A stretch of DNA of 63,932 bases, counting the filler, from Licmophora abbreviata (lineage: Eukaryota), in the NCBI GenBank assembly GCA_900291995.1. It is 13 parts of 13 records of this genome, joined end to end, with 100 filler letters (N's around TTAATTAATTAA, not from the genome) between each part and the next. Parts side by side here need not be neighbours in the genome. Positions count along the whole stretch, not along the records: positions 57,473 to 61,811 come from OLMU01005182.1; 12 more parts are not named here. One strand, given 5' to 3'. A program made the translations under genes and the position numbers. Position 1 is the stretch's first letter. Every line of letters begins with the position of its first letter. Below the pieces are notes generated by a model. That model was not told the origin of the DNA, did not search any database, and saw only the letters and a program-made list of their open reading frames with translations. Below, piece by piece: positions 3,381 to 62,103 of this stretch.

Positions 3381-3480
3381 NNNNNNNNNNNNNNNNNNNN
3401 NNNNNNNNNNNNNNNNNNNNNNNNTTAATTAATTAANNNNNNNNNNNNNNNNNNNNNNNNNNNNNNNNNNNNNNNNNNNN
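3381..3480. other. Artificial contig linker N44-TTAATTAATTAA-N44; also at 5796-5895, 8035-8134, 13471-13570, 29798-29897, 30943-31042, 35918-36017, 37078-37177, 38866-38965, 47477-47576, 57373-57472, 61812-61911
   Basis: Identical 100-bp N-padded spacer with stops in all six frames, repeated 12 times. Confidence 0.99.
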
Positions 3481-3682: not shown

Positions 3683-3856
3683 GTTGGAGGAATGAGTAGA
3701 CAAACGGTATCGATAAACAGAAATCCTTATGATGGTTGACAGTGTGTGCAAGGTATTTCGTCCAAGTGTGGATGCGTTAGGCAACAAGGTAGAGCGTTCT
3801 AGAGGTTGACGTTTGCGAGCGGCGCTGGGTTTCGGAATCGCCAGAAGAGAGCTATC

Positions 3857-5986
3857 TCAACGGCGAAAGCCACGACCCCCACCACGCCCTCCACCTCGCC
3901 CATATCCACCGCCACGACCAAACCCTCCTCTCGAGTAGCCTCGTCCCCCACCGTTCATATACCCTCGACCGCCCCGGCCTCCTCGCCCTCGTCCTCCCCC
4001 TCCATACCCGCGCCCCCCACCGCCAAACCGATTGCGTGGCACCATTGCCTGCAATTCGGGCGGGATTTCCTGTTCTGCCTTGCCCAGTACTTCCACCAAC
4101 TGCCTCGCGCACTTGCGATCTCCCTGTGTAAAGAAAGTGGAAGCCACTCCCTTGGCTCCAGCTCGACCTGTCCTCCCGATGCGATGCACTATGAAAAAAT
4201 GGAATGAACAATGAAGCAGAGTGTTGGCACCTAGAATACACACAGATCGATCGTCATACCAAACCCTTCCCCCATCCACTCACCGTAATCTTCCACCGCG
4301 TTGACACCAGCCGGCATATCGTAATTCACCACCGTCGAAATGTCCTTCACGTCCAACCCACGCGCTGCCACGTCTGTCGCAATCAACATGCGCAATGCGC
4401 CACTCTTGAAAGCATTCATCACCTTGGTTCGTTCCCATTGCGCACGATCACCATGCAACGAATCGACCGCAAACCCATCCTCCCAAAGCTGATTGGCAAG
4501 GTCATTGCATGAAACTTTTTTCGCGACAAAAACAATCACTTTGGCGTGCTTTTTGCCACCCAAATCGTTCATACGATTGTTGTTGTTCTTGTTGGAATCG
4601 TTCGGCTCGCTTTCTTCCATCAGTTTCTTCAGAATCTCCGTGAGTTTGTCAAACTTTTCCGACTCTTGACACATAATGATATTTTGTGTGATGTCCTTGT
4701 TGGCATTCAAGGCATTGACCTCCCCGACATTGATCTGAATGGGATCCTTCAAGAAGTCATGGGCGAGCTGCTGAATTTCTCGAGGCCAGGTGGCGGAGAA
4801 CAACATGGTTTGACGCGAGGGGGGGATGTTCTGAATAATGGAGCGAATCTGCGGTTCAAAGCCCATATCCAGCATGCGATCGGCTTCGTCCAAGACAAGG
4901 TACTTGACAGTGGAAAGGTTGGCCTTTTTCATTTCGATCAAGTCGTTCAGACGACCCGGTGTGGCAATGACACAATCGACACCTCGTGAAAGAGCAGCAA
5001 TTTGTGGATACTTGGGCGAGCCACCGTAGCAACAGACACTGCGAATGCCAAGAGTACGGCCAAACTTCTGTGCTTCCTCCATGATTTGCACTGCAAGTTC
5101 TCTCGTTGGAGCAAGTACCAAGAGACTCGGAGACGGACTGCGGTGATCAGGTCGACGGGCACCTCCGCCACCGCCGCCGCGACTTTGCAAGTGCTGATGA
5201 AAGGCGGGAAGCAAGAACCCACAAGTCTTTCCAGATCCAGTTTTGGCGATTGAAATCAAGTCAGCCCCCTTGATGGCAATGGGCCAGGCCTTGAGAGTAT
5301 TGAAATAGAGTGAAGAGTGGCTGTGTTAGATCGGATTGTGGCTAGAGCGAGACACATTCTTCATTGGCCGCAGCTTGTAGCACAGCTTCGACTCAGTCTT
5401 CGTTGATGTACTTACTTGCGATTGAATAGCAGTCGGTGCTGAGAACCCAGCCTGTTGAAGCGACATCTGGATTGCACTGGAAAAGGGTGCATCCGTAAAC
5501 TTGAAAAAGGGACTAGCAAACTCTGACGTACCGGCGTTCGTCCCGTGCCCCCGAATCTCAATGCCATGTTCATTCCTCCACGCCTCAGGCGACTGTTCTT
5601 CCTCCTTGGCATCCATAGAGCGCGTTCGACGCTTCTTAGTCTCTTGACCGGCTTGTTCCGTAAAATCCTTGGACCAGCTGCGCATGCGCTTCATCTCCGT
5701 AACATGTTCTGACGAGTCGGTTCCAAGCTGCGCGGCTTCGCGTTTCTTGTCCTTTTTCCGTTCCGCCTTGAGTTCTTCGTACGAAATTCCCATGGNNNNN
5801 NNNNNNNNNNNNNNNNNNNNNNNNNNNNNNNNNNNNNNNTTAATTAATTAANNNNNNNNNNNNNNNNNNNNNNNNNNNNNNNNNNNNNNNNNNNNAAGCA
5901 GCTTCCTTTTTGAGTGCTTCTTTCTTGGCCTTGCGAGCGGCCTTGTCGTCCTTGTCTGAAGCAGTAGTGTGAGTGGTTGTGGCCAT
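3857..5986 (-). CDS. DEAD-box RNA helicase, DBP2/p68-like, with RGG tail; spans linker 5796-5895; introns 5290-5415 and 4189-4283
   Basis: PTAIQSQAWP (Q motif), [43 protein letters not shown] and C-terminal RGG repeats. Confidence 0.93.
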
Positions 5987-6532
5987 GGTAGTGATAGGCG
6001 ACGTGTTTACGATGGAAAAAGTGAGAAAGCAGTGTGTGGATACCGAAAACAGAAAACTCAAAACTGAAAACGTTTCGGTGGTTGTCAGAGCACTCGACTG
6101 ACGGAGGAGAGACGGGCGCTTCCTTCTATATTGACACTTTTGGTGTTCTCTTATCGCGAACCCTCGTCACTGATGAAACGGGGTGCGAATTACAAACTCA
6201 AAACAGAGTTGAACCGTTGACACGTAGACGAGCGACGAGAGTTCATCCACTCCTGCTCGACACGTTGTGTGAAACGGTGTACTTTTGTTCTCTCTCATTT
6301 TCGGGCTATCTTAGTTTTTGATTCAAGAGAGCGGAGGAATACGCCTGGTACCGCCAAAAACTCACGCAAAAATTAAGTTTTGACGTCGAGAACCGCACCG
6401 TATCTTTTTAGAACAGAACACATATTTAAGTCTCCCACAACAAATCCAGAAAAGGCTTCTTGCAACCCATCCGATTGCCATTATTCTCATCCCCTCAGAA
6501 TATTTGCAAGGTCCTACAGAGACGCAGTCATC

Positions 6533-7461
6533 ATGGGAGGACCTGGTCTCAACGATAAGGTTCGAAGGCTTGAATCTGAACCTACCATGCTTATGTGCGA
6601 TGTCGCTCGCCATCTACATGGTACACTCACGCTGTCATCGGTTTTGTCTCTCGCTGTTGTAGTTTCCCAACCTAAAAGGTAGCACGCAGGACACTGAAGC
6701 TTTCGACTTGTACGAGTATATTGGAGATGCTTGGGGATTGGTGTTTATGCATGTAAGTGCGAGAGGAGTCTTAGCTAGGTCGGTAGGCGTTGAAGATCGT
6801 GTTTTGCACTCACTCACACTACCACCGATATCACTACTTCAACACTCGTCTCAATAAACTCTTCCTATCTACTCTCGATCTTTCGCAGCCTGGCGACTTT
6901 ACGCCCGTCTGTACGACCGAACTTGGCGCTGTGGCCAATTTGAAAGACAAGTTTCAAGCCCGAGGTGTCAAGCTCTGTGGATATTCTTGCAACGATGCCG
7001 CCTCCCATAGGATGTGGATTCAAGATATTCTGCACGTCACGGGCGGTCAAGTAGACTTTCCTCTCTTTTGCGATCCCACCCGTACACATGCAGTGGAACT
7101 GGGCATATTGGATGAATCCAACAAGGATGCCAAGGGCCTTCCGATGCCCGTTCGAAGTGTCTTTGTTCTGAAGCCCGACAAGACAATTGCACTCACGATT
7201 GCGTATCCTGCATCGACGGGACGGAACTTTGGTGAAATTCTACGAGTTGTGGATGCGATGAGATTGACTGCCGACCATCAGGTCGCTACTCCGGCCGATT
7301 GGAAACGGGGACAAGATGTGATTGTCAACTTTCCCTTGACAGACCAAGAGGCGGATGAGAAGTTTGGGGAGAGTGGGTATCGTGTTGTGTCGGTGCCATC
7401 AGAACGAGGGAAAGAACTGGCTACGCACTATCTCCGATTCACCAAAGATCCATCGACGTGA
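6533..7461 (+). CDS. 1-Cys peroxiredoxin (PRDX6 family); introns 6560-6662 and 6753-6888
   Basis: Splicing gives WGLVFMHPGDFTPVCTTELG; also YPASTGRNF and ATPADW. Confidence 0.93.
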
Positions 7462-8178
7462 AAACAATAGCAACTCTTGCAGGAGACGAACTCGGACAAT
7501 GTTTAATAAACTTTTATTCTTTTTGACGTCTTGGCTCTCTTGGACTCTCAGTCTGTCGCACTCCCTGATACAAGCGAACGCAAACATCGGAGAGGGTCAT
7601 TGGCAAGTCGGCTGTGTGAAAAATATGGCGGAGAAATGATCAAATTAGGTGCAGCTATAGCGGCAGTGCTCAAGCTCACTATAGAAATAGGATCGCCGGC
7701 TCTAGAGCCCTAGAAACCCGTGGCATGACCAAGAACAACGCATGCTCCCGGATACGACGCGAGGCACGCGTATTGATCCGAAGCTGCTAACCATGCTACG
7801 TGGGCAGAGTAGAAGCGATCACTACGCCCACTATAGTCGTCGCACTTCTTGCAGTTGCAAAGAGTGTTGCGTCGACTAGACTACTACGTAGTAGCTCTTC
7901 AAACGTCCGTGTGTCGCCTTCACCGCCGGAGGTACCCGCCCTGTACTGTATCATGTAGTGTAGTGTAATGATTTCTGTATTCTAAAATAATATTCCTATT
8001 TTTACTAGTTCGACACGGACGGCAGCCACTCAAANNNNNNNNNNNNNNNNNNNNNNNNNNNNNNNNNNNNNNNNNNNNTTAATTAATTAANNNNNNNNNN
8101 NNNNNNNNNNNNNNNNNNNNNNNNNNNNNNNNNNTCAAAACTGAAAAGCCATAAAACAGCGCAAAACATCATCCGACC

Positions 8179-12969: not shown

Positions 12970-14351
12970 CGTTTTCTCCCAGTTCGACAACGCCATCGTG
13001 TAAACTTCACTTCGGTGAGGCAAGATCACGAGGCACCCCAAAGAATGAGACGACAAAGCCAACAGCCGACGAAGAAGGATCGCTTTCCTCAATTTGCCGG
13101 CGAAGAAGGCACTCCTAAGATTTGCTCAGGTTGAAGTTTGGACTTAGACCAGAACACTGCTAAAACATTCGAAATTTGGAGCGAGTCGAAGCAGTCAAAG
13201 AGAGAAGGGAAGGCGAGTCACGAGTCTGACTAGACTCAGCCCTTCCGGTTTGTTCTTGTTGTGTGGATGAGAAAAATCGAGTCGATATCATCATTACTTA
13301 AGAGGGTAAAAGACGGAGTTAAAGCCACAGCTCAGTCCCCGGATATAGCCGCAACGTTATCGAGACAGCTCTCCCAAGGTCTACTAGTTCGGTAGTGCAG
13401 GAGAGTACCGATGGCCACTCGGCCGGTAAAATACTAGTACCTGCTGTAGCTACTTTACTCTAGCACTGTANNNNNNNNNNNNNNNNNNNNNNNNNNNNNN
13501 NNNNNNNNNNNNNNTTAATTAATTAANNNNNNNNNNNNNNNNNNNNNNNNNNNNNNNNNNNNNNNNNNNNGGTGGGGCGGGGTGGGTGTTTGGAAGTTAC
13601 CAGTAGGAGGGGGTTCAAAAGTGGGGGGACCTGTTCCAAGTGCACAATCGGACGTTGACAGGAATGACTTGTCGACGCAGCTCTTCGCCACAGCCTTCAT
13701 GCGTAAACGCTTCTGGCCGATCTTCTCGCTGTTACCCAACCGTGCTTTGTTTTGTCATCACAGGTGATGTTAATTTCTAGATTTGAGCAAATGTCAAATA
13801 GGAAATTTACTGTAAAACGATTCTATTCGAGTACAGTCATAATAGCCTGATCTGATAAGAGTGGAGGAGAGGATTCTGGGAGTCCGAATCGCCAGGAGCG
13901 ACAGGTCTGGAAAGCTTGAGAGGATCAATTGGTAACATATATACAAATTTTCGTACTGTCTTTAAATAAGGGCTATACAGCTATACAGTATACATTGATA
14001 TACACAGGTGAATGATTCGAACGGAGTTCATGACTCGGAGGGCGCGCGGGCGCACTTGTGTCACATTTTGCATTTTGTGGCTTGCTCGCATTGGCAGCTT
14101 GGGATGCTCTCCTTGACCCTCTTACATCTTCTTCTTGAGGCGAAAAGTACTTTTCCAACAAGGGGGAGAGATCTCTGCCCTGCGGTTTCATTTTTTACTT
14201 GTGAGAAAACGAAAACGGCGACTGTCAATTTGCGACCTGCCACCCGCGCGGAGTGTTGACCGGCTCCCCGTAGAAAAATCTCGTACATTTCCTACGCAAA
14301 ATCAAAAAGAGATTGCAGATTTCAGCCATTTCACAGTATCAGTGACAGTGA

Positions 14352-29678: not shown

Positions 29679-29897
29679 GCAAAGAGAGCAGTCCCCAACC
29701 AGAACAAGTAGAAGGACAGACAAAATCAGTTTCAACTGTAGATGTTTGAAGTTTTAGTCTAGCCCGTCTTTGTGCTGTATGGGAACGGGAAGGTCGCNNN
29801 NNNNNNNNNNNNNNNNNNNNNNNNNNNNNNNNNNNNNNNNNTTAATTAATTAANNNNNNNNNNNNNNNNNNNNNNNNNNNNNNNNNNNNNNNNNNNN

Positions 29898-30686: not shown

Positions 30687-31220
30687 AAGAGGTACTACTT
30701 AGTCGAAAAGTGCAAGTCGAAGCGAAGAGAGGTGCACCGGGAACGTTCGAAGCAGAAGTGGAATTGGGCGGCGGGTGCATATGAAGTACTGTAATGGCTC
30801 TGAAGCTAGCTGGAGAAAGTAAGTAGTTGTGAATTCCTATCAATCCGTGCTCTAGCCACTGGTATGAAGACTATGCACTAATACCTTTCAACCAACAAAA
30901 GTCAGGCAGCGCTCCCAGTCAATGTAGATCCCCCAGAACACCNNNNNNNNNNNNNNNNNNNNNNNNNNNNNNNNNNNNNNNNNNNNTTAATTAATTAANN
31001 NNNNNNNNNNNNNNNNNNNNNNNNNNNNNNNNNNNNNNNNNNTAATTTCGATATGAAATTCGCGTGATGAGAAAGTTCTACAAGTCGTACGGTATGATAC
31101 AAGCATTCCGGATTCCGTTGGCGTGCCCTGTCAGAGTTCTAGTCGGACGCCTAGCTCGACAAGGATGAACAACAACCACAAATTGAAGCAACCGGCCTCC
31201 TAGCTACTGTGCCTTGTTCT

Positions 31221-35814: not shown

Positions 35815-36017
35815 ACGCGAGGGTTGTTCTTTACAAATAATAGTGAACTGAGCAATCTAGCTACTTGGTAGTGCCAATCGCGCGACTAGCTAGTACAGTA
35901 CGACAGACTGCTGATAGNNNNNNNNNNNNNNNNNNNNNNNNNNNNNNNNNNNNNNNNNNNNTTAATTAATTAANNNNNNNNNNNNNNNNNNNNNNNNNNN
36001 NNNNNNNNNNNNNNNNN

Positions 36018-37077: not shown

Positions 37078-37228
37078 NNNNNNNNNNNNNNNNNNNNNNN
37101 NNNNNNNNNNNNNNNNNNNNNTTAATTAATTAANNNNNNNNNNNNNNNNNNNNNNNNNNNNNNNNNNNNNNNNNNNNCCCGATAGTTGACCGATTGCAAA
37201 GTGACTCAAGTCCTCCAGGCGATCCTCT

Positions 37229-38865: not shown

Positions 38866-39172
38866 NNNNNNNNNNNNNNNNNNNNNNNNNNNNNNNNNNN
38901 NNNNNNNNNTTAATTAATTAANNNNNNNNNNNNNNNNNNNNNNNNNNNNNNNNNNNNNNNNNNNNATTCGTGAGTCGAACGAGTCGACTCAAATGTGTCA
39001 TTTCGGCGTCCCACGTCACGAGCGACGCCATGACTGAACGACCAAAGACGGCATTCGTTTGGCATTTATTTTCACGCTGCGTTGAGCTTGTTCTATTGAC
39101 CTGCGGTACTCTTACTCTCTTGTTTCTTATCGGACTGAGCACCGAGGCATTTTCAATCCTACTAAGAAACCA

Positions 39173-47367: not shown

Positions 47368-47576
47368 ATACAAGTAGATGGCCCCGTTTGTAAAGTTTGT
47401 TTGACTTATGGTAATGTAGATGCACCGCTGCCTTATGGTTGTTTACCTAGCGGTGGCGCTGCAAGACACACTACTANNNNNNNNNNNNNNNNNNNNNNNN
47501 NNNNNNNNNNNNNNNNNNNNTTAATTAATTAANNNNNNNNNNNNNNNNNNNNNNNNNNNNNNNNNNNNNNNNNNNN

Positions 47577-53803: not shown

Positions 53804-54196
53804 GCTGCCTTTCCAAAATAAAATGTCTTTTACTGGGACCGCACAGTCGGGGTCGTCAACAGATCCAAAGAAGTGTAAGTGAAGTGAAAAGGCTCGTGTG
53901 CGGGCTGAGCTGAGGGCTTCATCAGGTTTCGAATGAATCAGGAATTTGAAATTCGACTCAGTCGACCCGACCCGCCCTCACCGGTCATCGCGCGAGTGTG
54001 AGGGTCTCAACGCTCGCCCGCCGCCCTCAAACCGTCCCAACAAAGGATCGCAGCTTGCTTCGGCGGGATTCATTCGCGGCTCCATTCGTCCCGTTGGCTC
54101 TTTTCTGTACATCTAAGAAGCTCTGCACAGCAGTCTCAGTCTCATTTGATCTTGGAACCTTCGTGTTGTGTTCCAGGAGCGACAGAAGGCTCCAGA

Positions 54197-56393
54197 ATGA
54201 CCTCAAACAAAGAATCGCTGCTTGCGTCCCTGACCGACGTAGATGTCGGTACAAGTCCAACGGATGCCAAAGAGCAAGACTTGTTCGGAGATGTGGTGGA
54301 CGAATCACCTCCTTTGTTTGCCAATGACGACCCTTTAGAGGACCTGGAGCCAACCCCTGCGGCACAGGCGTCATCCCCAGCAGTGACGAACGGTCCGGCA
54401 CCAAACGGGAAGGCCTTAGCTTCGAAACTTCTCGCGGGCAGCGGCTTGTTGGAGGCGACTTCAAGTGCGCCCTCTGGGGGCGGAGGGGGGTTGTTCGATG
54501 AGGTGGACCAAGAGCAGCAGCGTCTGGAACAAGAGGAACGAAGGCGTCAGGTCCAGCAGGAACGTCTCGAACAAGAGCGACGGCTACAGGAACAAGAGAG
54601 ACTCCGCCAGCAGCAAGCGGAGCAGGCGCTCGCCCAACAGCAGCTGGTGCAACAACAACAAGTGCAACAGCAGCAGCAACAACAATATCTGCAGCAGCAA
54701 CAAATGGCGAATCAGATGCAGAGCATTACTATTTCGTCGCCAGGTCAAACGTATACGAACGTCGACGCGCCTGCGTACTCGCCGCAGCAGCAGTTTTCGC
54801 CTCAGGGCTTTTACAGACCACACGATTCGGTCCCCGGAGGAGTTACCGTCCCGAGTGCTACCTCTCCACCGCCTTCTTCCATTCAGTCAAACGCCTATCA
54901 TGGGTCTATGTTGACGTACACCACAACGGGAGGTCCAGTTCAGACACACACGTTTCGTCCTTCAATCACAGCTGGGATGCACAATGCGACCAACATGGCT
55001 CGTCCCCCGAACGTACGCGGGACATTGAAACCACCCGAAAACGTCCGGCCCGTATACACAGAAATCGAAGTGTCAGATCCTATCCTGGTGCAGGGTCACG
55101 GAGGCTTGTTGACGGTGGTCGGAATGCATTCGCCCCCTCATTGGTCGTATCAAGTCACGTGCAAAGTTGCGCCAGAAGAGGGCGGGGGATCGTGGTTGGT
55201 GCGAAGGCGCTTCCGACATGTTGTGGCGTTGGAAGATCGGCTTCGTCAAGAGTGTCCGGGAGCTATTTTACCGGCGAGGTACGACTCATCGAGCGATGTC
55301 TCTGCGCTCAATTCATGTTTGCTAACTATCCTCTCGACATTCATTCAACAGACCAGAAAAGCATGCAACGCGTGCCATCGAGGAGGCCTCTACAACGCAG
55401 ACTGCGGAATTTGCAAAGCAGCGTGTAGAAGAGCTGCAGGTCTATCTAAGGGCACTGTGTGACCACCCTATTGCCGGACATGCCTCCGTCTTGAAGTTGT
55501 TCTTGTCTCTGCAGGACGACATGGGCACGGCATGGCCCGAAGTGAGCAGCAACGCCCTGACGCGCCTGAGCGCAGTGGGAGCCGGTGCGGCGATCATGGT
55601 GGCGGAAACATCGGCTTCTTTGACCGAAGGTTCTGCTACTTCCAGTGCGCTCAAGGTGGGAGAGAGCAATGCCGAGTTGCTGGCGTTGGCATCGAGCGAG
55701 GGACTGCGTATGGGAGCGGTGACACAGGCCGTTCCGAAACTGGAAGGCTCTGTCATGCTGATTCGAGAACAAGGGGAAATGCAAGGAGCATGCGGTATGG
55801 AACTCAACAAGCTGACCAAAGAACTAGGGGAGAGCGATAAGGATCTTACCGTTCCCCTCCAGTTCCTCAGCAGCGGCCTACTGCGCAGTAGTCGCCGGAC
55901 GAAGCGATTGGCCATGGAACTGAGTGCTGCCATGGGTACGTTCGTGAATCAGTACAAGCTGTGCAAGTATGAACAGAAAGCCTTTCAGGATCGCCGACAG
56001 GCCCTGCAGCGGTGTCAAAAAGAACGATCCAAGGCTGACGTCCGCGCACAGAAGCTCTTGTTGCAGCAACGCGCAACGACGGGAGTCTATGGCGAACTGG
56101 AACGTGCTGAACGCGACGCCGTCGTGAGCGACGAAGTTGCGGTAGACGCAGGACAAGAGTGCGAGCAAATTGGCGAGCGTCTCAAGTCGGAAGTCAACCG
56201 CGTGGCCTATGAGCGTCGCTCGGAGTGGAGCAAGAGTATGAAGATTGTCGCGAGCGCAATGAAGGAGGCGAGTAGCGAGCGGGTGGCGATTTGGGAGAGT
56301 ACGCGTGAGCCGTTCCTACAGGCGTTTAGCGACGAGGCTGCAGCCGAGGGGCAAGCCAGTGCCGGTGGCGGCGCAGCAGTGGCATCGAGCTAG
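54197..56393 (+). CDS. Sorting nexin (PX plus BAR/Vps5-like) with Gln-rich N-terminus; intron 55279-55351
   Basis: PX motifs VRRRFRHVVALEDRL, PGAILPARPEK, LCDHP, LKLFL; helical C-terminal region; CAG/CAA-rich tract about 54510-54710. Confidence 0.85.
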
Positions 56394-56513: not shown

Positions 56514-57372
56514 TTAGCTTCTCAAATTTGCCAAACGCGCCTCCAGGTCATCCGTAACAGGGTTCTCCTTTGCTGGGGCCTTGAGCGAAGGTGTCTTCTT
56601 TGCGATAGGCCCGGCCTGCGAGAATGCGTCTCCAAGCTCCAAATTGTTCGAATCGGCAACTTGCTGTACGAGTTCATCGACTTGCTCTGCGGGAGTCGAA
56701 GTGGCAGTTGTCGAGTCCATGACACTATCCATGTAGCCAGTTTTAACATCCAAGTCCTCAAACTGCTCTTCGAATTTGTCCATGAGAACCGAGATCTTTT
56801 GAATGTCCATGGACGCAAGACTCTTGTCCATGCCCCTAACGACCCCCTTCATACTGCCCGTGACCTGGTCCATGCGAACTGCCGTCTCGAGACGACTGGC
56901 GCAGGCATCTATTCGCGACGCCATGCGCAAGTGATTGAGAGATTGATTCTTTTCGCGAATAGCGTCCTGCGCGTAAATACGAGCTCCTTCGTGGTTTCCT
57001 TGTTGGATGGACTAGAGACAAGGAAAGGGAAAGAGGAGGTGAACAATCTGTTGACGAAAACCGCTCACGAAACTCACGGCCCGAACGAACACAGGCCGGG
57101 TGGCACTGTAAGATGCGACCGAGTGACCGATCAGAGTCCTCAAGTGCCATGAAAAACGTAGGAGCGACAAGGAGCAAAGCTGATGGGGTATTTATCCACT
57201 CAGTCTTCCGACCCTAGGTCTCCCAGTTCTCTAGGCGAAAATCCAAAGCACGACCCACCTTTTTCAGCTTTTCAATCGCGGCTTTCTCATTCTTTTCACA
57301 CTTCTTCGACGAGCGCTGCATCTGCTTCGAAGTGATCTTGAGATTGATCAGCTCCTCTTCTAACGAAACTTT
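56514..57372 (-). CDS. CHMP1: ESCRT-III CHMP1/Did2/Vps46, 5' end in gap; intron 57012-57258
   Basis: ELINLKITSKQMQRSSKKCEK, GARIYAQDAIR, LRMASRIDA, MDKFEEQFEDLDV and C-terminal MIM1-type DDLEARLANLR. Confidence 0.93.
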
Positions 57373-57877
57373 NNNNNNNNNNNNNNNNNNNNNNNNNNNN
57401 NNNNNNNNNNNNNNNNTTAATTAATTAANNNNNNNNNNNNNNNNNNNNNNNNNNNNNNNNNNNNNNNNNNNNGGGGTGACTTCTACAGCATGCTTATTCC
57501 CAATCTTTCAATTTGTGGAGAAGTGCATCTCTTTAAAGTGGGCTCCAAGGAAAGCCCGACAAACGTCTCCTCCATCATGACCTCACTTTGTACGGGGAAA
57601 TTAGAATCCACCTCTCTCTACTAGAGCGCCGTCCAGTGCTCAAGCGATACAAGGTGAAGACCTCCTCTGCAAACGACTCTCAACAGTTCAAATGCCTTTC
57701 TTGTCTTCGTTGTCAAGATGCGTCCAGCAACGCGGTCGCTGCATATACTTCCGACGTGCGCGAAAAGACGTCTGTCAGACATGTTGCTTCAACTTCGTCG
57801 AGACGACGTCGTCATCGAGCATACTCTAAAGGTTTTTCAGTGGCTTAACCAATCGAGCAACAGCTCTCATCTCGAAT

Positions 57878-59623
57878 CTACTCTTCTTTCCATACGAAAG
57901 CCTGAAACACGCGCGGGTCAAAATCACAGTGCTGGTCGTCCCAGTTGTACATATCAATGAAGGTGCGATTCGCTTTGTCGAACTTGCAGCACGCGTACCA
58001 GCGCAATGTTGCTTTGAGCGCTTCCTCGTCCGTACATCGCACTCGCACGGCATATGGTACGTATTGGCTTGTGAAGTGGCCCTCACCCCAATATTCTGAC
58101 GAAGAAGAAAAATCGCTTTCCATGGAACGCCAACTCTTTTCCGGAGCTTCCCGCTCATCATCGTCGTCCTCCACAACGTCATGTTGACTCAGAAAGTCCT
58201 CGAATGGCAGAGAATCTATCACGTCATACCAGACTTCACCGTTTCCACGCTTCAGTCGCAAGATTGCCACAACGTGCTCGTGAAAAAAGACGGTCGCAGC
58301 TGCCCTCTTTTCGAGCGGAACGGTCATCGACAGAAGCTTCCAGAACGCGTCTACGTGCTGATCATCAATAATGTTCCCCCCGCAAACAGACACAAACTGG
58401 CTGTGTGAGAGCATTCCTCTCGTCAGTAAGAAGTCATGTACATCCGAAGGAATGATAAGAGCATCTTTTGTCAATCCCAATTCGGTTCGTACTTGTGCTA
58501 GCAGCACGGGCGTCTCGTCATCAATGACTTGTCGGACGGACGAGTCGGGCAAGCCTGGATCATCCGTCTGCCTATAATTGGAAAAGTGATGAAGACAAAT
58601 TAATGGGGCAATAACGGTACACCCATTGATGCTTCCCGGCAGTCTCCCCTGATAGGTATCCACGTGATTGATGCGAATCATTTTGGAAGCACGGAGTTGT
58701 TCAAAGTCTTCGTGATAGCACCGACGCAGAGTGAGAATGTCGATCTCTGAAATGGACTTGGTGCGAGCGCGACTCGTAGCTGTGGATATAGATGTCATGG
58801 AAGGCACACGATCCGTCAACGACACGTCCATGCCACTCAGATATAACGCGCGCTCTAAATCCGTTTCGGAAGACGAGAATGACGGTCGGCGGGTGTGCTG
58901 ATCTGTCGACTGATCATAGGGTCCCGTGGCTGCCTCCGGAGCGATGCGATTTGCAGTGTTGTCATCCACTGTCGTCTTTGCTTGAGATGGACAGATCCCC
59001 TCCGAGAAGGACTCGCTCAGCTGTGCACATAGCATGCCAGCATCCATGTAGCCAAAAGAGTTCTGCTCCTTCTGCTGTCGGTCTCTGAGCTCACACAATT
59101 CTTGTTCCACAACGACGCGGTCCTTTTCGTACGCGTGAGGAGAGACAGTAGCCTGCTCGCCTGCTAGGCGAGCCAGCTTTTCCACTCGCACATTCTCCAG
59201 AGAAGGGTCGTACTCGGTCTGTTGTAGAATCTCTTGGAGCTGCTGTGTGACGCGCAACGCTTGTTCTGTGTTCTGTTTTCGATCTTCATCATGCCGCGAC
59301 GAGTAAAAGTACCCATGCTTCGGAATTTCCAACAACGCCATTTCAACAAACTGCAGTCCGACTGCGTAAGCAATCTGAAACGCGTGCTGCTCCAACAGAG
59401 CATCGAAGGCGATCAAAATTTGCTGGTTCAGGGCGTAGTGCTTTTCAATCGGGGTAATTCGGTATGAGTCTCCCAGAGATCGAGTGCGGCGATGGAGTTG
59501 GCGAGGAGATGAAGGCGACGGGGGGTTTTGCTGCGCGTCAGTCCGATGACGTTGCAAGATAGATGCGGGTGGAGGGTCTTTTGGAGAAGATTTGGTCGGG
59601 GATGGCATATTACGGTTGCTCAT
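57878..59623 (-). CDS. Uncharacterised 581-aa protein: USP8/AMSH-like N-terminal helical domain plus putative Cys-His-Asp protease domain
   Basis: Intronless ORF; AYAVGLQFVEMALLEIPKHGYF; YQG...NGCTVIA; FFHEHVVAI; WYDVIDSLP. Confidence 0.7.
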   Translation of the reverse strand: MSNRNMPSPTKSSPKDPPPASILQRHRTDAQQNPPSPSSPRQLHRRTRSLGDSYRITPIEKHYALNQQILIAFDALLEQHAFQIAYAVGLQFVEMALLEIPKHGYFYSSRHDEDRKQNTEQALRVTQQLQEILQQTEYDPSLENVRVEKLARLAGEQATVSPHAYEKDRVVVEQELCELRDRQQKEQNSFGYMDAGMLCAQLSESFSEGICPSQAKTTVDDNTANRIAPEAATGPYDQSTDQHTRRPSFSSSETDLERALYLSGMDVSLTDRVPSMTSISTATSRARTKSISEIDILTLRRCYHEDFEQLRASKMIRINHVDTYQGRLPGSINGCTVIAPLICLHHFSNYRQTDDPGLPDSSVRQVIDDETPVLLAQVRTELGLTKDALIIPSDVHDFLLTRGMLSHSQFVSVCGGNIIDDQHVDAFWKLLSMTVPLEKRAAATVFFHEHVVAILRLKRGNGEVWYDVIDSLPFEDFLSQHDVVEDDDDEREAPEKSWRSMESDFSSSSEYWGEGHFTSQYVPYAVRVRCTDEEALKATLRWYACCKFDKANRTFIDMYNWDDQHCDFDPRVFQAFVWKEE

Positions 59624-60333
59624 GATGCTGGGTCAAGCCTATGGTTTCGAACGGGATTCGATTCGTAGCTCAAATTTGGAGTTTGCCCCGAAGACTTCAC
59701 TGGTTTCCTGGGTACCAAGTAGAGAAAGAACTGTACTGGTACTTCGATTGTAATGGTCACCCAGATGCAGCGTAAGATCAGAAAACAGCGTGAGCAGCAA
59801 CGCTACCAGGTCAGTAACAGTACAAGTAGAGGGAATCAATCATTTCTGATGCCACGGAACGGTCGCCGTCGCTGATGCGATTGATGCGGTGAATTTTATG
59901 TTGAATGTTGCAAGATTGCTCGCTTACGATTTATCGCTAAACACATCTGTTTATAAAATTAGGCCCAACAGAATATCGACGGGATCTAATCCGACTGACT
60001 CGACTGACTCGATCGCTCGTTTGTCTACTCTGTCCGCATATTGAATATGGTAGACGTCTCATAGATCTACTTCTGTTGAGCCCCGAAGGATGTAACGACA
60101 TTGACCTCCGATATAAGAATTGCAAGGAGTCACGGATGCTTTCATGTGCGTGCTGGATGACTTGAATCTATCGATCGGAGGTGCGGCACATGTACTTCTG
60201 AAGATCATGTAGTGCGCGAGCGGCAGCGAGGTGGTCCGCTATTTTCTCTCGCTGGCTTGAGACAATACGACGGCGTTGATGGTACAATTCACGAGAATGC
60301 TAGCTCAATGGGCTAGGGCCACTTCCTACGCTA

Positions 60334-62103
60334 TCATCCTTTTCTGCAAGTTCTCTCGTTCCTTCTGGGAATACATCTCCGACTGTGTTCGGTTGCGCTG
60401 AGGCTCACTATGCCAGTTCCCTCTGTAAGTCGCATGAGAGAGTATTCCTCCAAGTGCGAAAAATCTCCTCGCCCATGGAAGCCACACTGCCACCAGAATG
60501 CGCCACAACCCTTGACTCTCTCCATGTCGACGTGCTCTCCCGTATCGCAACAGCTGTCCGTCGCCGCGTCTAGTTCATATACGTCGGGAAACTTGTCAGC
60601 CGGCAGCAGCAAGTTTGCTGCATCGTTGACAATTCCTCCCAAGTCGAGGGGATGTGGGATAGGCTGCAATCGATGAGGAATAACTATGCGTCCCTTGTCG
60701 AGTTCCCGTGTAAAGAATGATGTCAGTCGGCCACTCAAAATCTGGTCAGCCTCGGTCAGGAAAAGGTACTTGAACTTCGACGGAGTCTCTCCCAACCAGT
60801 CTGCTGATGGCTTAGTTCCGTTGATTGCTTCCTGGAGACCCTTCAATGCGCCTTTTGGAATGTTTTCTTCTATGAACTTCGATTTGACTTCGTTTGTATG
60901 AACAAACGCGAGTTCTGTCGAACCAAAGTAGGTCGAAAACGGCAGGTGTTCAGGCTTGGTAGAGTTGCTCGCCGAGATCGTGCTGGAAGAAAGTCTCCGC
61001 CGAATCGTACTGGTATCCGTTGCATCTTGCTGTGGGCGATATCGCATCAGTTGTGCGAAAGCACTCTTGGTACATCTGTGATCTGCATCGTAGTAGCCCA
61101 CGACCAAAACTCGCCCGACGCCAAATTGTAGAAGCGACGCAATCGTAGCTGCCAACGATGTAGCCCAAATCTGCTCTTCTGTGCTTCCACCCCTCACATT
61201 CACACCATATGGGATAATAGCAAGCGTCGAGCTCATCGCCGTCGACGGCGTCTTTTGAACGGTCCTCTGAATGTACGATTGCAACTTACCGATACCATAC
61301 ATCATGGCCGGCGCATCGCCCATTTTCCACCACTTGCTCAAATGTTCGAGAGAAAAGTCCAACCAGTCAAGCGCCATTCGAACATCGTCAAATCCATTGC
61401 CAGCCTTTAGGATCGGCTTAAACGCGTCATCCTCCACGATGTAGCACTCCTCGGCGTCGAAATCCATGAAACGAGACATCGTCTGCCACCAGGACGCAGC
61501 GAAGACGTCGTTGAACTTGAACCCTGGATTAAGATCTTGCGGGGGAATCAAGTCGATCTCTGTTGGCTCACTGTTAGCAGCTTCGGCTTTATCTTCCTTC
61601 GTGACGCGATCAGTCTCGGCATGATGTACCGGCTCGGTCGCCGTGGACTCTTTCGTTGCGTCGATGCTGGTATCGCCAGCGCCGCTTCCGTTACTTGCCT
61701 CTGTCGTCAAGTCTCCATTCTCCATAGTGTCTGTCGCATCAAGGAGGCTCTCGTGTTTCACACCTCGAATGGAAGGATTGTCTGTCGTTGCTGGTTGTCG
61801 GTCATCATCACNNNNNNNNNNNNNNNNNNNNNNNNNNNNNNNNNNNNNNNNNNNNTTAATTAATTAANNNNNNNNNNNNNNNNNNNNNNNNNNNNNNNNN
61901 NNNNNNNNNNNGATATCATCATCGTGGTCCTCATGGCCCTCACGAATCTCAAGCGGGACGAAGAAGAGAATATCCTCTAACCCTTTCTTATTCCCCCCTT
62001 CTTTCGATCCAGCAAGCGTCGAGCCCGTAGGAGAGAATCCTGTCACCCTTTGCGCACTGGCTAACAATGTAGACAGGAGAATTATAAGCCATTTGCGTGA
62101 CAT
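60334..62103 (-). CDS. Hypothetical secretory-pathway protein, probably spanning linker 61812-61911
   Basis: The 475-aa ORF stays open to the contig edge at 61811. The next contig supplies a signal-peptide exon (MSRKWLIILLSTLLASA) on the same strand, running into the gap. Confidence 0.65.

Follow-up and report, generated by a model that had tools for sequence, protein, structure and literature searches.

What kind of enzyme is encoded by the coding sequence (CDS) at 57878..59623(-) of the window analysed here, a stretch of 63,932 nt from the diatom Licmophora abbreviata (assembly GCA_900291995.1), in which positions 57,473-61,811 come from record OLMU01005182.1? The original prediction had read this gene as a candidate new deubiquitinase (DUB), composed of an N-terminal domain of the type found in AMSH and USP8 and of an unassigned papain-like cysteine protease domain. 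According to the list of open reading frames (ORFs) and the codons checked, the CDS runs without interruption over 581 codons from an ATG start to a TAG stop codon, requires no intron, and contains the peptides that had been quoted from it. Based on sequence comparisons and predicted structures, the protein probably represents a not yet described type of endosomal enzyme that removes ubiquitin; its MIT-like domain, its linker with a motif resembling ubiquitin-binding ones, and its protease domain with the fold of the viral-tegument-like DUBs (VTDs) are considered in turn below.

The gene is clearly real. A word-indexed search returned 216 homologs at an expect value (E) of at most 1e-3, the best having 46% identity over 93% of the length, and an exhaustive profile search returned 531 homologs at E<=1e-3 and 395 at E<=1e-10; these numbers, together with the conserved residues described below, place the ORF well beyond chance. 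All homologs carrying a taxon name are from diatoms (Seminavis, Amphora, Fistulifera, Cylindrotheca, Mayamaea, Nitzschia, Bacillariaceae sp. and Thalassionema (Thalassionema nitzschioides)), and the databases label them as "hypothetical", "expressed unknown protein", "unnamed protein product" or "uncharacterized", or mention only a "USP8 dimerisation domain". Besides the window-type proteins, a second diatom family, referred to as paralog B (P0212 and P0239-P0347), possesses the same MIT and protease domains, and both Fistulifera solaris and Cylindrotheca fusiformis encode one protein of each type. Three alignments were used: A1 for the window-type proteins, A2 as a profile from 33 paralog-B proteins, and A3 comprising 68 sequences of the catalytic domain. 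Conservation counts refer to the window protein and 237 fetched relatives (238 aligned sequences, both paralogs). The homologs align across residues ~44-578 of the window protein, and its residues 1-55 (59459..59623(-)) form a disordered and poorly conserved tail, with a predicted local distance difference test score (pLDDT) below 50 and variable sequence in A1.

The first domain is an AMSH/USP8-type MIT-like domain (residues 57-190, 59054..59455(-); core motif AYAVGLQFVEMALLEIPKHGYF), which is modelled by AlphaFold2 from A1 as five helices (59-78, 82-102, 109-135, 140-159 and 162-189) with pLDDT of 83-98; at the columns of G89, P101, H103 and Y105, at least 96% of the aligned sequences have the same residue. 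Its assignment to the USP8_dimer family (PF08969) is by transitive homology. The window protein showed no match to PF08969 at E<=10, and 30 members of A1 yielded four sub-threshold matches (best E 0.013); among 28 more distant relatives scanned, 13 matched at E<=0.01, with eight at or above the curated cut-off of 24.6 bits, and many paralog-B proteins carry a precomputed PF08969 label. The A2 profile recovered the MIT domain of human AMSH/STAMBP, crystallised with CHMP3 (2XZE_A, chain residues 8-141), with an E of 6.8e-7, and the N-terminal domain of USP8 weakly (E 2.6), while hhalign aligned A1 with A2 over window residues 48-581 at a probability of 100 and an E of 3.6e-91. Since A1 is homologous to A2, and A2 leads to 2XZE and PF08969, the N-terminal helical domain of the window protein is homologous, through these intermediates, to the MIT domain of AMSH and USP8; the resemblance noticed in the original prediction is real and is visible only through relatives. 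Structural comparison with VIA-align was not discriminating for this part, as the Z values of USP8 2A9U (8.8) and of 2W2U and 4U7I, both MIT domains (8.5 and 8.0), resembled those of many other helical bundles. [quoted passage not shown]

The linker following this domain carries a motif resembling a ubiquitin-interacting motif (UIM), which had been missed by the original prediction. It is located at residues ~248-264 (SSSETDLERALYLSGMD, 58832..58879(-)) and is comprised of an acidic run, L-x-x-A-L-x-x-S and further acidic residues, with a helix modelled at 250-262 with low pLDDT. The UIM consensus consists of an acidic run, hydrophobic-x-x-Ala-x-x-x-Ser and then acidic residues; SETDLERALYLSGMD at residues 251-265 fits it, and L256, A259, L260, L262, S263 and G264 show little or no variation in A1. 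The pattern [LIVMF]xxA[LIVMF]xxS was counted in linkers, with shuffled linkers as controls, for 119 window-type proteins (120 listed by the word-indexed search, one without the NGC landmark being dropped) and 110 paralog-B proteins (P0212 and 109 newly numbered rows, leaving out 10 rows fetched earlier). It was present in 115/119 window-type linkers (11.2 in the shuffled controls) and in none of the 110 paralog-B linkers (3.9 shuffled). The paralog-B linkers all possess a PPxY motif, mostly PPSY (110/110, against 6.7 shuffled), which was also found in 16/119 window-type linkers (2.4 shuffled). Some long window-type members, of 757-919 aa, display a textbook UIM, DDDQWMLEHALKESEREME, ~100 residues before the catalytic Cys; members with this motif are P0021, P0024 (from Seminavis robusta), P0029, P0030, P0039, P0040, P0044 and P0056. 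UIMs bind ubiquitin, and PPxY motifs bind the WW domains of NEDD4/Rsp5-type ligases. Judged by their motifs, both paralogs are thereby tied to the ubiquitin system at membranes.

The catalytic domain (residues 295-581, 57881..58741(-)) was assigned with AlphaFold, VIA-align, Foldseek and the ESM Atlas. Two models were computed, one of the full-length protein from A1, in which residues 295-480 and blocks of 522-581 have pLDDT values that mostly exceed 85, and one of residues 290-581 alone from A3, with a mean pLDDT of 89.1 and a predicted template modelling score of 0.87. When compared using VIA-align with 48,161 PDB representatives (Z given as full-length/domain model), both models were closest to VTDs: DrT1-VTD2 (8ADD_A, Z 16.4/16.5, root-mean-square deviation 3.2-3.3, 189/212 aligned), Wc-VTD1 (8ADB_A, Z 15.0/14.1, 181/209 aligned) and M48 of MCMV (2J7Q_C, Z 14.8/14.8, 178 / 183 of 232 aligned). 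The best cysteine protease outside the VTDs was AvrPphB (1UKF_A, Z 10.2/10.4, 171/188 aligned), and the cysteine-protease folds other than VTD and AvrPphB reached Z values of at most 9.6; the designed helical repeat 7UE2, with Z 11.7 in the full-length list, was matched to the N-terminal domain. Foldseek placed the same VTD entries first, with a probability of 1.0 for the top entries and at least 0.97 for all VTD chains; E values lay between 4e-3 and 4e-2 with the full-length model and fell to 1.8e-4 (8ADD) with the domain model. In a viral structure library the best rows were herpesvirus large tegument proteins and uncharacterised giant-virus proteins. In the ESM Atlas, residues 300-581 lay near arthropod clusters of which 17% and 11% carry PF04843 Herpes_teg_N (score 0.94/0.93, 183/179 shared features), and a C58 cluster scored 0.84 only.

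In the predicted structures, the C-terminal half thus has a papain-like cysteine-protease fold of the VTD type, which is a known fold. The papain-like character proposed in the original prediction is borne out by AlphaFold, Foldseek and VIA-align, and the domain can no longer be called unassigned. Its belonging to a catalytic class other than that of AMSH (JAMM) or USP8 (USP) is supported as well, in that Pfam reported neither the JAMM nor the USP family at E<=10 and USP structures gave only generic papain-fold matches (USPs and UFSPs at Z 6-8 in the domain-model list). A Josephin reading, for which the H..A.R...W...DS pattern of Josephin-type DUBs had been put forward, was rejected, as Josephin-2 (6PGV_A, 132/152 aligned) reached Z 8.6/8.6 and ataxin-3 Z 6.5 versus 14-16.5 for the VTDs, and Pfam gave no match to PF02099; what is shared with Josephins is the generic papain core. 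Sequence searches added little for this half of the protein: neither the catalytic domain nor the UIM could be assigned from Pfam scans of the window protein, of three of its sub-segments and of 30 A1 members, PF03543 matched neither the window protein nor its segments nor the 30 A1 members, and searches of PDB sequences with the window protein and the A1 profile gave chance-level matches only (La protein, cortexillin, a designed claudin and a multicopper oxidase).

The lower-ranking fold neighbours bear on two other explanations. The enzyme could process a ubiquitin-like modifier (NEDD8, ATG8, UFM1 or SUMO) or act as a "clippase" at the C-terminus of ubiquitin, given that the structural matches include UFSP1/2 (Z 7.1-7.3), the SUMO protease USPL1 (7ZJU_A, Z 8.2/8.3), the NEDD8-directed Cif (Foldseek rank 10) and bacterial Josephin-like clippases (Z 8.0-8.2), and that ZUFSP, UFSP and ATG4 show, according to the text of Erven et al. 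2022 (PMC9741609), that, within clans of this kind, the topology of the triad and the specificity for a modifier change. These matches are much weaker than those to VTDs, and the UIM-like motif together with the AMSH/USP8-type MIT domain favours ubiquitin at endosomes, which makes such a specificity rather improbable. Another conceivable function is non-proteolytic chemistry of a papain fold on a protein of the ESCRT or ubiquitin pathway, by a Cif-like deamidase, a transglutaminase or an acyltransferase. The fold matches include domains of Cif, MCF and PaTox (PaTox, Mcf and an MCF-like effector, 6HV6, 8P51 and 6II2, at Z 8.7-9.6), but with a Z of at most 9.6, and the Q-x9-C motif with a His/Asp hairpin is the classic layout of a protease; we consider this explanation very improbable.

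The Cys, His and Asp of the original prediction lie at the codons named there and, like the Gln of its Q-x9-C motif, are conserved throughout the family. Q325 (58649..58651(-)), 10 residues before C335, is the candidate oxyanion-hole Gln by analogy with papain-like enzymes and is kept in 234/235 sequences. The candidate nucleophile C335 (58619..58621(-)), in the motif STNGC, is kept in 235/235 and lies near the N-terminus of a helix assigned by DSSP to residues 331-348. H450 (58274..58276(-)), the candidate general base, is the first residue of strand 450-458 and is kept in 234/235, with one Y; D470 (58214..58216(-)), the candidate third residue of the triad, is the last residue of strand 464-470 and is kept in 233/235, the Asn present in the other two members being the exchange expected of a papain-type third triad residue. 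The choice of His was correct, because H448, which comes first in FFHEH, varies among H, R and K across members (paralog B usually having FFFREH in place of FFFHEH) while H450 is kept. In the DSSP assignments of both models, the strands 450-458 and 464-470 are joined by a five-residue turn and hence form a hairpin in the canonical arrangement.

As far as alignment and model can tell, C335, H450 and D470 stand in the canonical Cys-His-Asp order, and not in that of the Asp-x-His motif of VTDs. The hairpin strand 464-472 reads WYDVIDSLP, and position 472, two residues after D470 where the His of a VTD would be placed, is L in 220 and M in 13 sequences; the sole D-x-H of the family, D394-V-H396, is found at Cys+59/61, within a loop that belongs to the helical lobe. 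The residue after H450, V451, is invariant, and an aromatic gatekeeper is therefore lacking. In DrT1-VTD2 the Asp-x-His is found at Cys+129/131, and in M48 a "second histidine", H141, is described as close to the active site (both according to the text of PMC9741609); a literature search on the geometry of M48 His141 gave no description beyond this source. Provided that there is no net insertion or deletion, Cys+129/131 falls in strand 464-470. Spacing and secondary structure suggest, by analogy, that D470 corresponds to the VTD Asp and H450 to H141 of M48.

A further conserved element is an acidic/His loop, D394-V-H396-D397 (within IPSDVHD; 58433..58444(-)), located at Cys+59 to +62, in which D394 is kept in 238/238 sequences and H396 in 232/238 (N in five, Q in one); R379 is kept in 237/237. 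In DrT1-VTD2, D376/E377 (Cys+54/55) aid recognition of the ubiquitin tail, and their mutation lowers the cleavage of ubiquitin and RLRGG-AMC (text of PMC9741609). Because these residues have a similar spacing from the Cys, the loop is a candidate site for the Arg-x-Arg tail of ubiquitin, which D394 and D397, equivalent by spacing only, would probably grip.

The canonical triad keeps alive the explanation that the protein is a limited protease scaffolded on ESCRT-III rather than an isopeptidase, either docking on ESCRT-III like calpain-7/Rim13 to cut one particular substrate protein, or acting like YopT/AvrPphB on a lipidated or kinase target. YopT and AvrPphB, which are not DUBs, have the same Cys-His-Asp order, and AvrPphB is the best match outside the VTDs (Z 10.4). 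The Cys-to-His spacing in the diatom protein is 115 residues, close to the 114 between C98 and H212 in AvrPphB, and calpain-7 offers a precedent for a cysteine protease with MIT domains that is not a DUB. The fold is nevertheless clearly nearer to that of the VTD DUBs, which score Z 14-16.5, than to that of AvrPphB; a UIM-like motif and, in the paralog, PPxY point to the ubiquitin system, and the MIT domain is of the AMSH/USP8 subtype. A limited protease is therefore unlikely in our view, though it is the main rival. That the protein is catalytically dead and merely bridges ubiquitinated cargo and ESCRT-III as a scaffold is extremely improbable, as 233/235 sequences or more retain each of Q, C, H and D across two paralogs and pseudoenzymes usually lose them, even though inactive VTD domains are common in insects according to the text of PMC9741609.

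With a little more confidence than an even chance would give, we favour a modular cysteine enzyme of diatoms that works as an ESCRT-III-docked ubiquitin isopeptidase; the data show a real and conserved gene, the homology of its MIT domain, the fold, the conserved Q, C, H and D with their positions in the secondary structure, and the linker motif, while the substrate (ubiquitin), the docking to ESCRT-III and the exact geometry of the triad are what we infer. The AMSH/USP8-type MIT domain would dock on ESCRT-III subunits, CHMP1 for instance, via their C-terminal tails, and ubiquitinated cargo or chains, or ubiquitin on ESCRT components, would be held by the UIM-like helix of the disordered linker. 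The VTD-fold domain could then remove ubiquitin from cargo or ESCRT components before vesicle entry, with D394/D397 gripping the Arg-x-Arg tail of ubiquitin, Q325 contributing the oxyanion hole, C335 acting as nucleophile, H450 as base and D470 as the orienting acid, in a triad with the canonical order of papain and YopT instead of the Asp-x-His that known VTDs have in flipped order. The VTDs characterised are all DUBs, and the lack of an aromatic gatekeeper is reported for VTD and ZUFSP DUBs (text of PMC9741609).

Several results weigh against an ESCRT-III-docked isopeptidase. At E<=10 the window protein matches no Pfam family at all, JAMM, USP and Josephin included; PF04843 is absent at this threshold from the window protein and from its C-terminal 288 aa, and from 30 members of A1, the ESM Atlas clusters being the sole hint at this family on the sequence side. 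The A1 and A2 profiles retrieved from the PDB sequences, at E<=10, neither a VTD (2J7Q, 8AD*) nor any protease, so that the link between the family and DUBs is structural only. The flipped site is possibly the source of the ubiquitin specificity of VTDs, and YopT/AvrPphB with their canonical triad are not DUBs (text of PMC9741609), so that the missing Asp-x-His, at the place where it would be expected (D470-S-L472), counts in the same direction. The UIM-like motif sits in a low-confidence part of the model and is not matched by the Pfam UIM model (PF02809) at E<=10 even as an isolated 36-aa segment; this model is short, and its match may have been dropped by the HMMER filters. Finally, the adjacency to a CHMP1 gene, described below for the window, is present at only 3/18 window-type loci and at 0/26 paralog-B loci, counting loci whose flank on one side is 1.8 kb or longer.

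A wider proposal, which we put forward tentatively and with more doubt than conviction, is that diatoms have assembled independently a third class of ESCRT-III-docked DUB. It would combine the VTD fold with an ancestral YopT-type triad, as an intermediate between YopT-like proteases and tegument-like DUBs, and achieve ubiquitin specificity without the flipped Asp-x-His; the paralogs would split the job, one reading ubiquitin through its UIM and the other docking NEDD4/Rsp5-type ligases through PPxY. Literature searches on diatom, ESCRT, MIT and VTD deubiquitinases found no paper describing an architecture of MIT plus VTD-like protease. In the text of PMC9741609 that was searched, MIT or USP8 domains are not mentioned and stramenopile VTDs are mentioned once, in the Discussion; diatom names are absent from its readable text supplements, and its supplementary figures and trees could still list stramenopile VTDs. 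The same paper hypothesises an origin of VTDs from YopT-like proteases, with specificity for ubiquitin acquired via a flipped active site, and the diatom family, having a VTD-like fold, an unflipped triad and motifs of the ubiquitin system, is of direct relevance to this hypothesis. New classes of deubiquitinases are rare, and each opens new biology. The family has hundreds of members in diatoms, organisms that are ecologically dominant and in which endomembrane trafficking is poorly characterised.

Two additional features of the catalytic domain were recognised. An acidic, disordered insertion of variable length (residues 481-521, 58061..58183(-); pLDDT <50) is gapped in the comparison with A2 and absent from paralog B, and the C-terminal signature FDPRVFQAFVW (residues 568-581, 57881..57922(-)) forms the last strand of the sheet (572-579), with D569 kept in 232/232, R571 in 232/232 and Q574 in 230/231 sequences.

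The genomic neighbourhood has to be read with the composition of the window in mind, which is made up of 13 contigs joined at 12 linkers of 44 N, TTAATTAATTAA and 44 N (3381-3480, 5796-5895, 8035-8134, 13471-13570, 29798-29897, 30943-31042, 35918-36017, 37078-37177, 38866-38965, 47477-47576, 57373-57472 and 61812-61911), across which gene order and orientation may be artificial. A CHMP1/Did2-like ESCRT-III gene (56514..57371(-); Pfam Snf7, E 8e-10) is located on the same strand, 500 bp past the stop codon of the protease gene. It is composed of exon 1 (57259-57371, its 5' end cut by the linker) and exon 2 (56514-57011), separated by a 247-nt GT-AG intron. As the linker 57373-57472 lies between both genes, their adjacency in the window is no physical evidence of linkage. 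The C-terminus of this CHMP1, DDLEARLANLRS, resembles MIM1, a motif bound by MIT domains, and is a possible ligand of the MIT domain of the window protein. A CHMP1 homolog (62-64% identity) was found in 3 of 80 metagenome loci encoding relatives (L013, L015 and L021), all three of window type and with CHMP1 beside the homolog on a contiguous contig. On the contiguous contig behind L021, the CHMP1 gene (3722-4117(-)) and a gene for a 718-aa homolog with all motifs (4818-6974(+)) are divergent and ~700 bp apart, and pairs of this type may share a promoter. Together with the counts given above, these loci hint at a CHMP1 linkage that is recurrent and not general. The contig carrying the window's CHMP1 gene also contains, at 54146-56393(+), two consecutive ORFs in different frames with weak matches to PX (E 0.004) and Vps5/BAR (E 0.002), which, on this sequence evidence, are probably one intron-containing gene for an SNX-BAR sorting nexin, a second endosomal gene on this contig. 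Directly upstream of the protease gene, on its own contig and strand, lies an ORF of 475 aa (60334-61761(-)) that has no Pfam match at E<=0.01.

Among the known systems, the VTDs (MEROPS C76, PF04843; M48/UL36 USP, DrT1-VTD2 and Wc-VTD1; 2J7Q, 8ADD, 8ADB/8ADC; Erven et al. 2022, PMC9741609) are by a wide margin the best structural match. With them the diatom proteins share a Gln upstream of a Cys at the N-terminus of a helix, the lack of an aromatic gatekeeper after the His, and a conserved acidic loop ~55-60 residues past the Cys, where DrT1-VTD2 has its ubiquitin-tail binders. Unlike VTDs, the diatom family has no sequence match to PF04843 or to PDB entries and no Asp-x-His on the strands of the sheet, its His being placed on the preceding strand. 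In the diatom protein, the protease domain is joined with an MIT domain and a UIM-like motif and contains the extra disordered insertion 481-521. Because PF04843 fails and the Asp-x-His is lacking where it would be expected, we do not class the family as VTD, but as VTD-like with a YopT-type triad. According to the text of PMC9741609, the Asp-x-His of VTDs is invariable and their triad flipped relative to papain, YopT/AvrPphB have the conventional Cys-His-Asp, and YopT-like proteases are proposed, in the Discussion, as the ancestors of VTDs. YopT/AvrPphB (MEROPS C58, PF03543; 1UKF) resemble the diatom proteins in the Cys-His-Asp order, in a near-equal Cys-His spacing and in overall fold; they score, however, 4-6 Z units below the VTDs, and PF03543 gave no match to the diatom proteins. 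Their known members are bacterial effectors that cut host GTPases or kinases, whereas the diatom proteins are eukaryotic and carry MIT and UIM modules.

The Josephin DUBs (ataxin-3 and JOSD1/2; PF02099) have in common with the diatom proteins a papain-like core and a strand pair of the H...W..(D/N)S type, but the fold match is generic and there is no Pfam match. Ataxin-3 likewise joins a protease domain with UIMs. Calpain-7, PalB and Rim13 bring MIT domains and a papain-like Cys-His-Asx protease to ESCRT-III; unlike the diatom proteins, they have another subtype of protease fold and another subtype of MIT domain, and no calpain was among the best 50 matches of either VIA-align list. The organisation of AMSH/STAMBP and USP8/UBPY/Doa4 (PF08969; 2XZE, 2A9U) is similar to that of the diatom proteins, with a homologous N-terminal domain followed by a linker and a C-terminal catalytic domain. 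The catalytic domain of the diatom proteins, in contrast to theirs, is neither a JAMM metalloprotease nor a USP, and, if the proposed function is true, it would be the third catalytic class on the ESCRT-III-binding MIT module, after JAMM in AMSH and USP in USP8/Doa4, and thus a case of convergent architecture.

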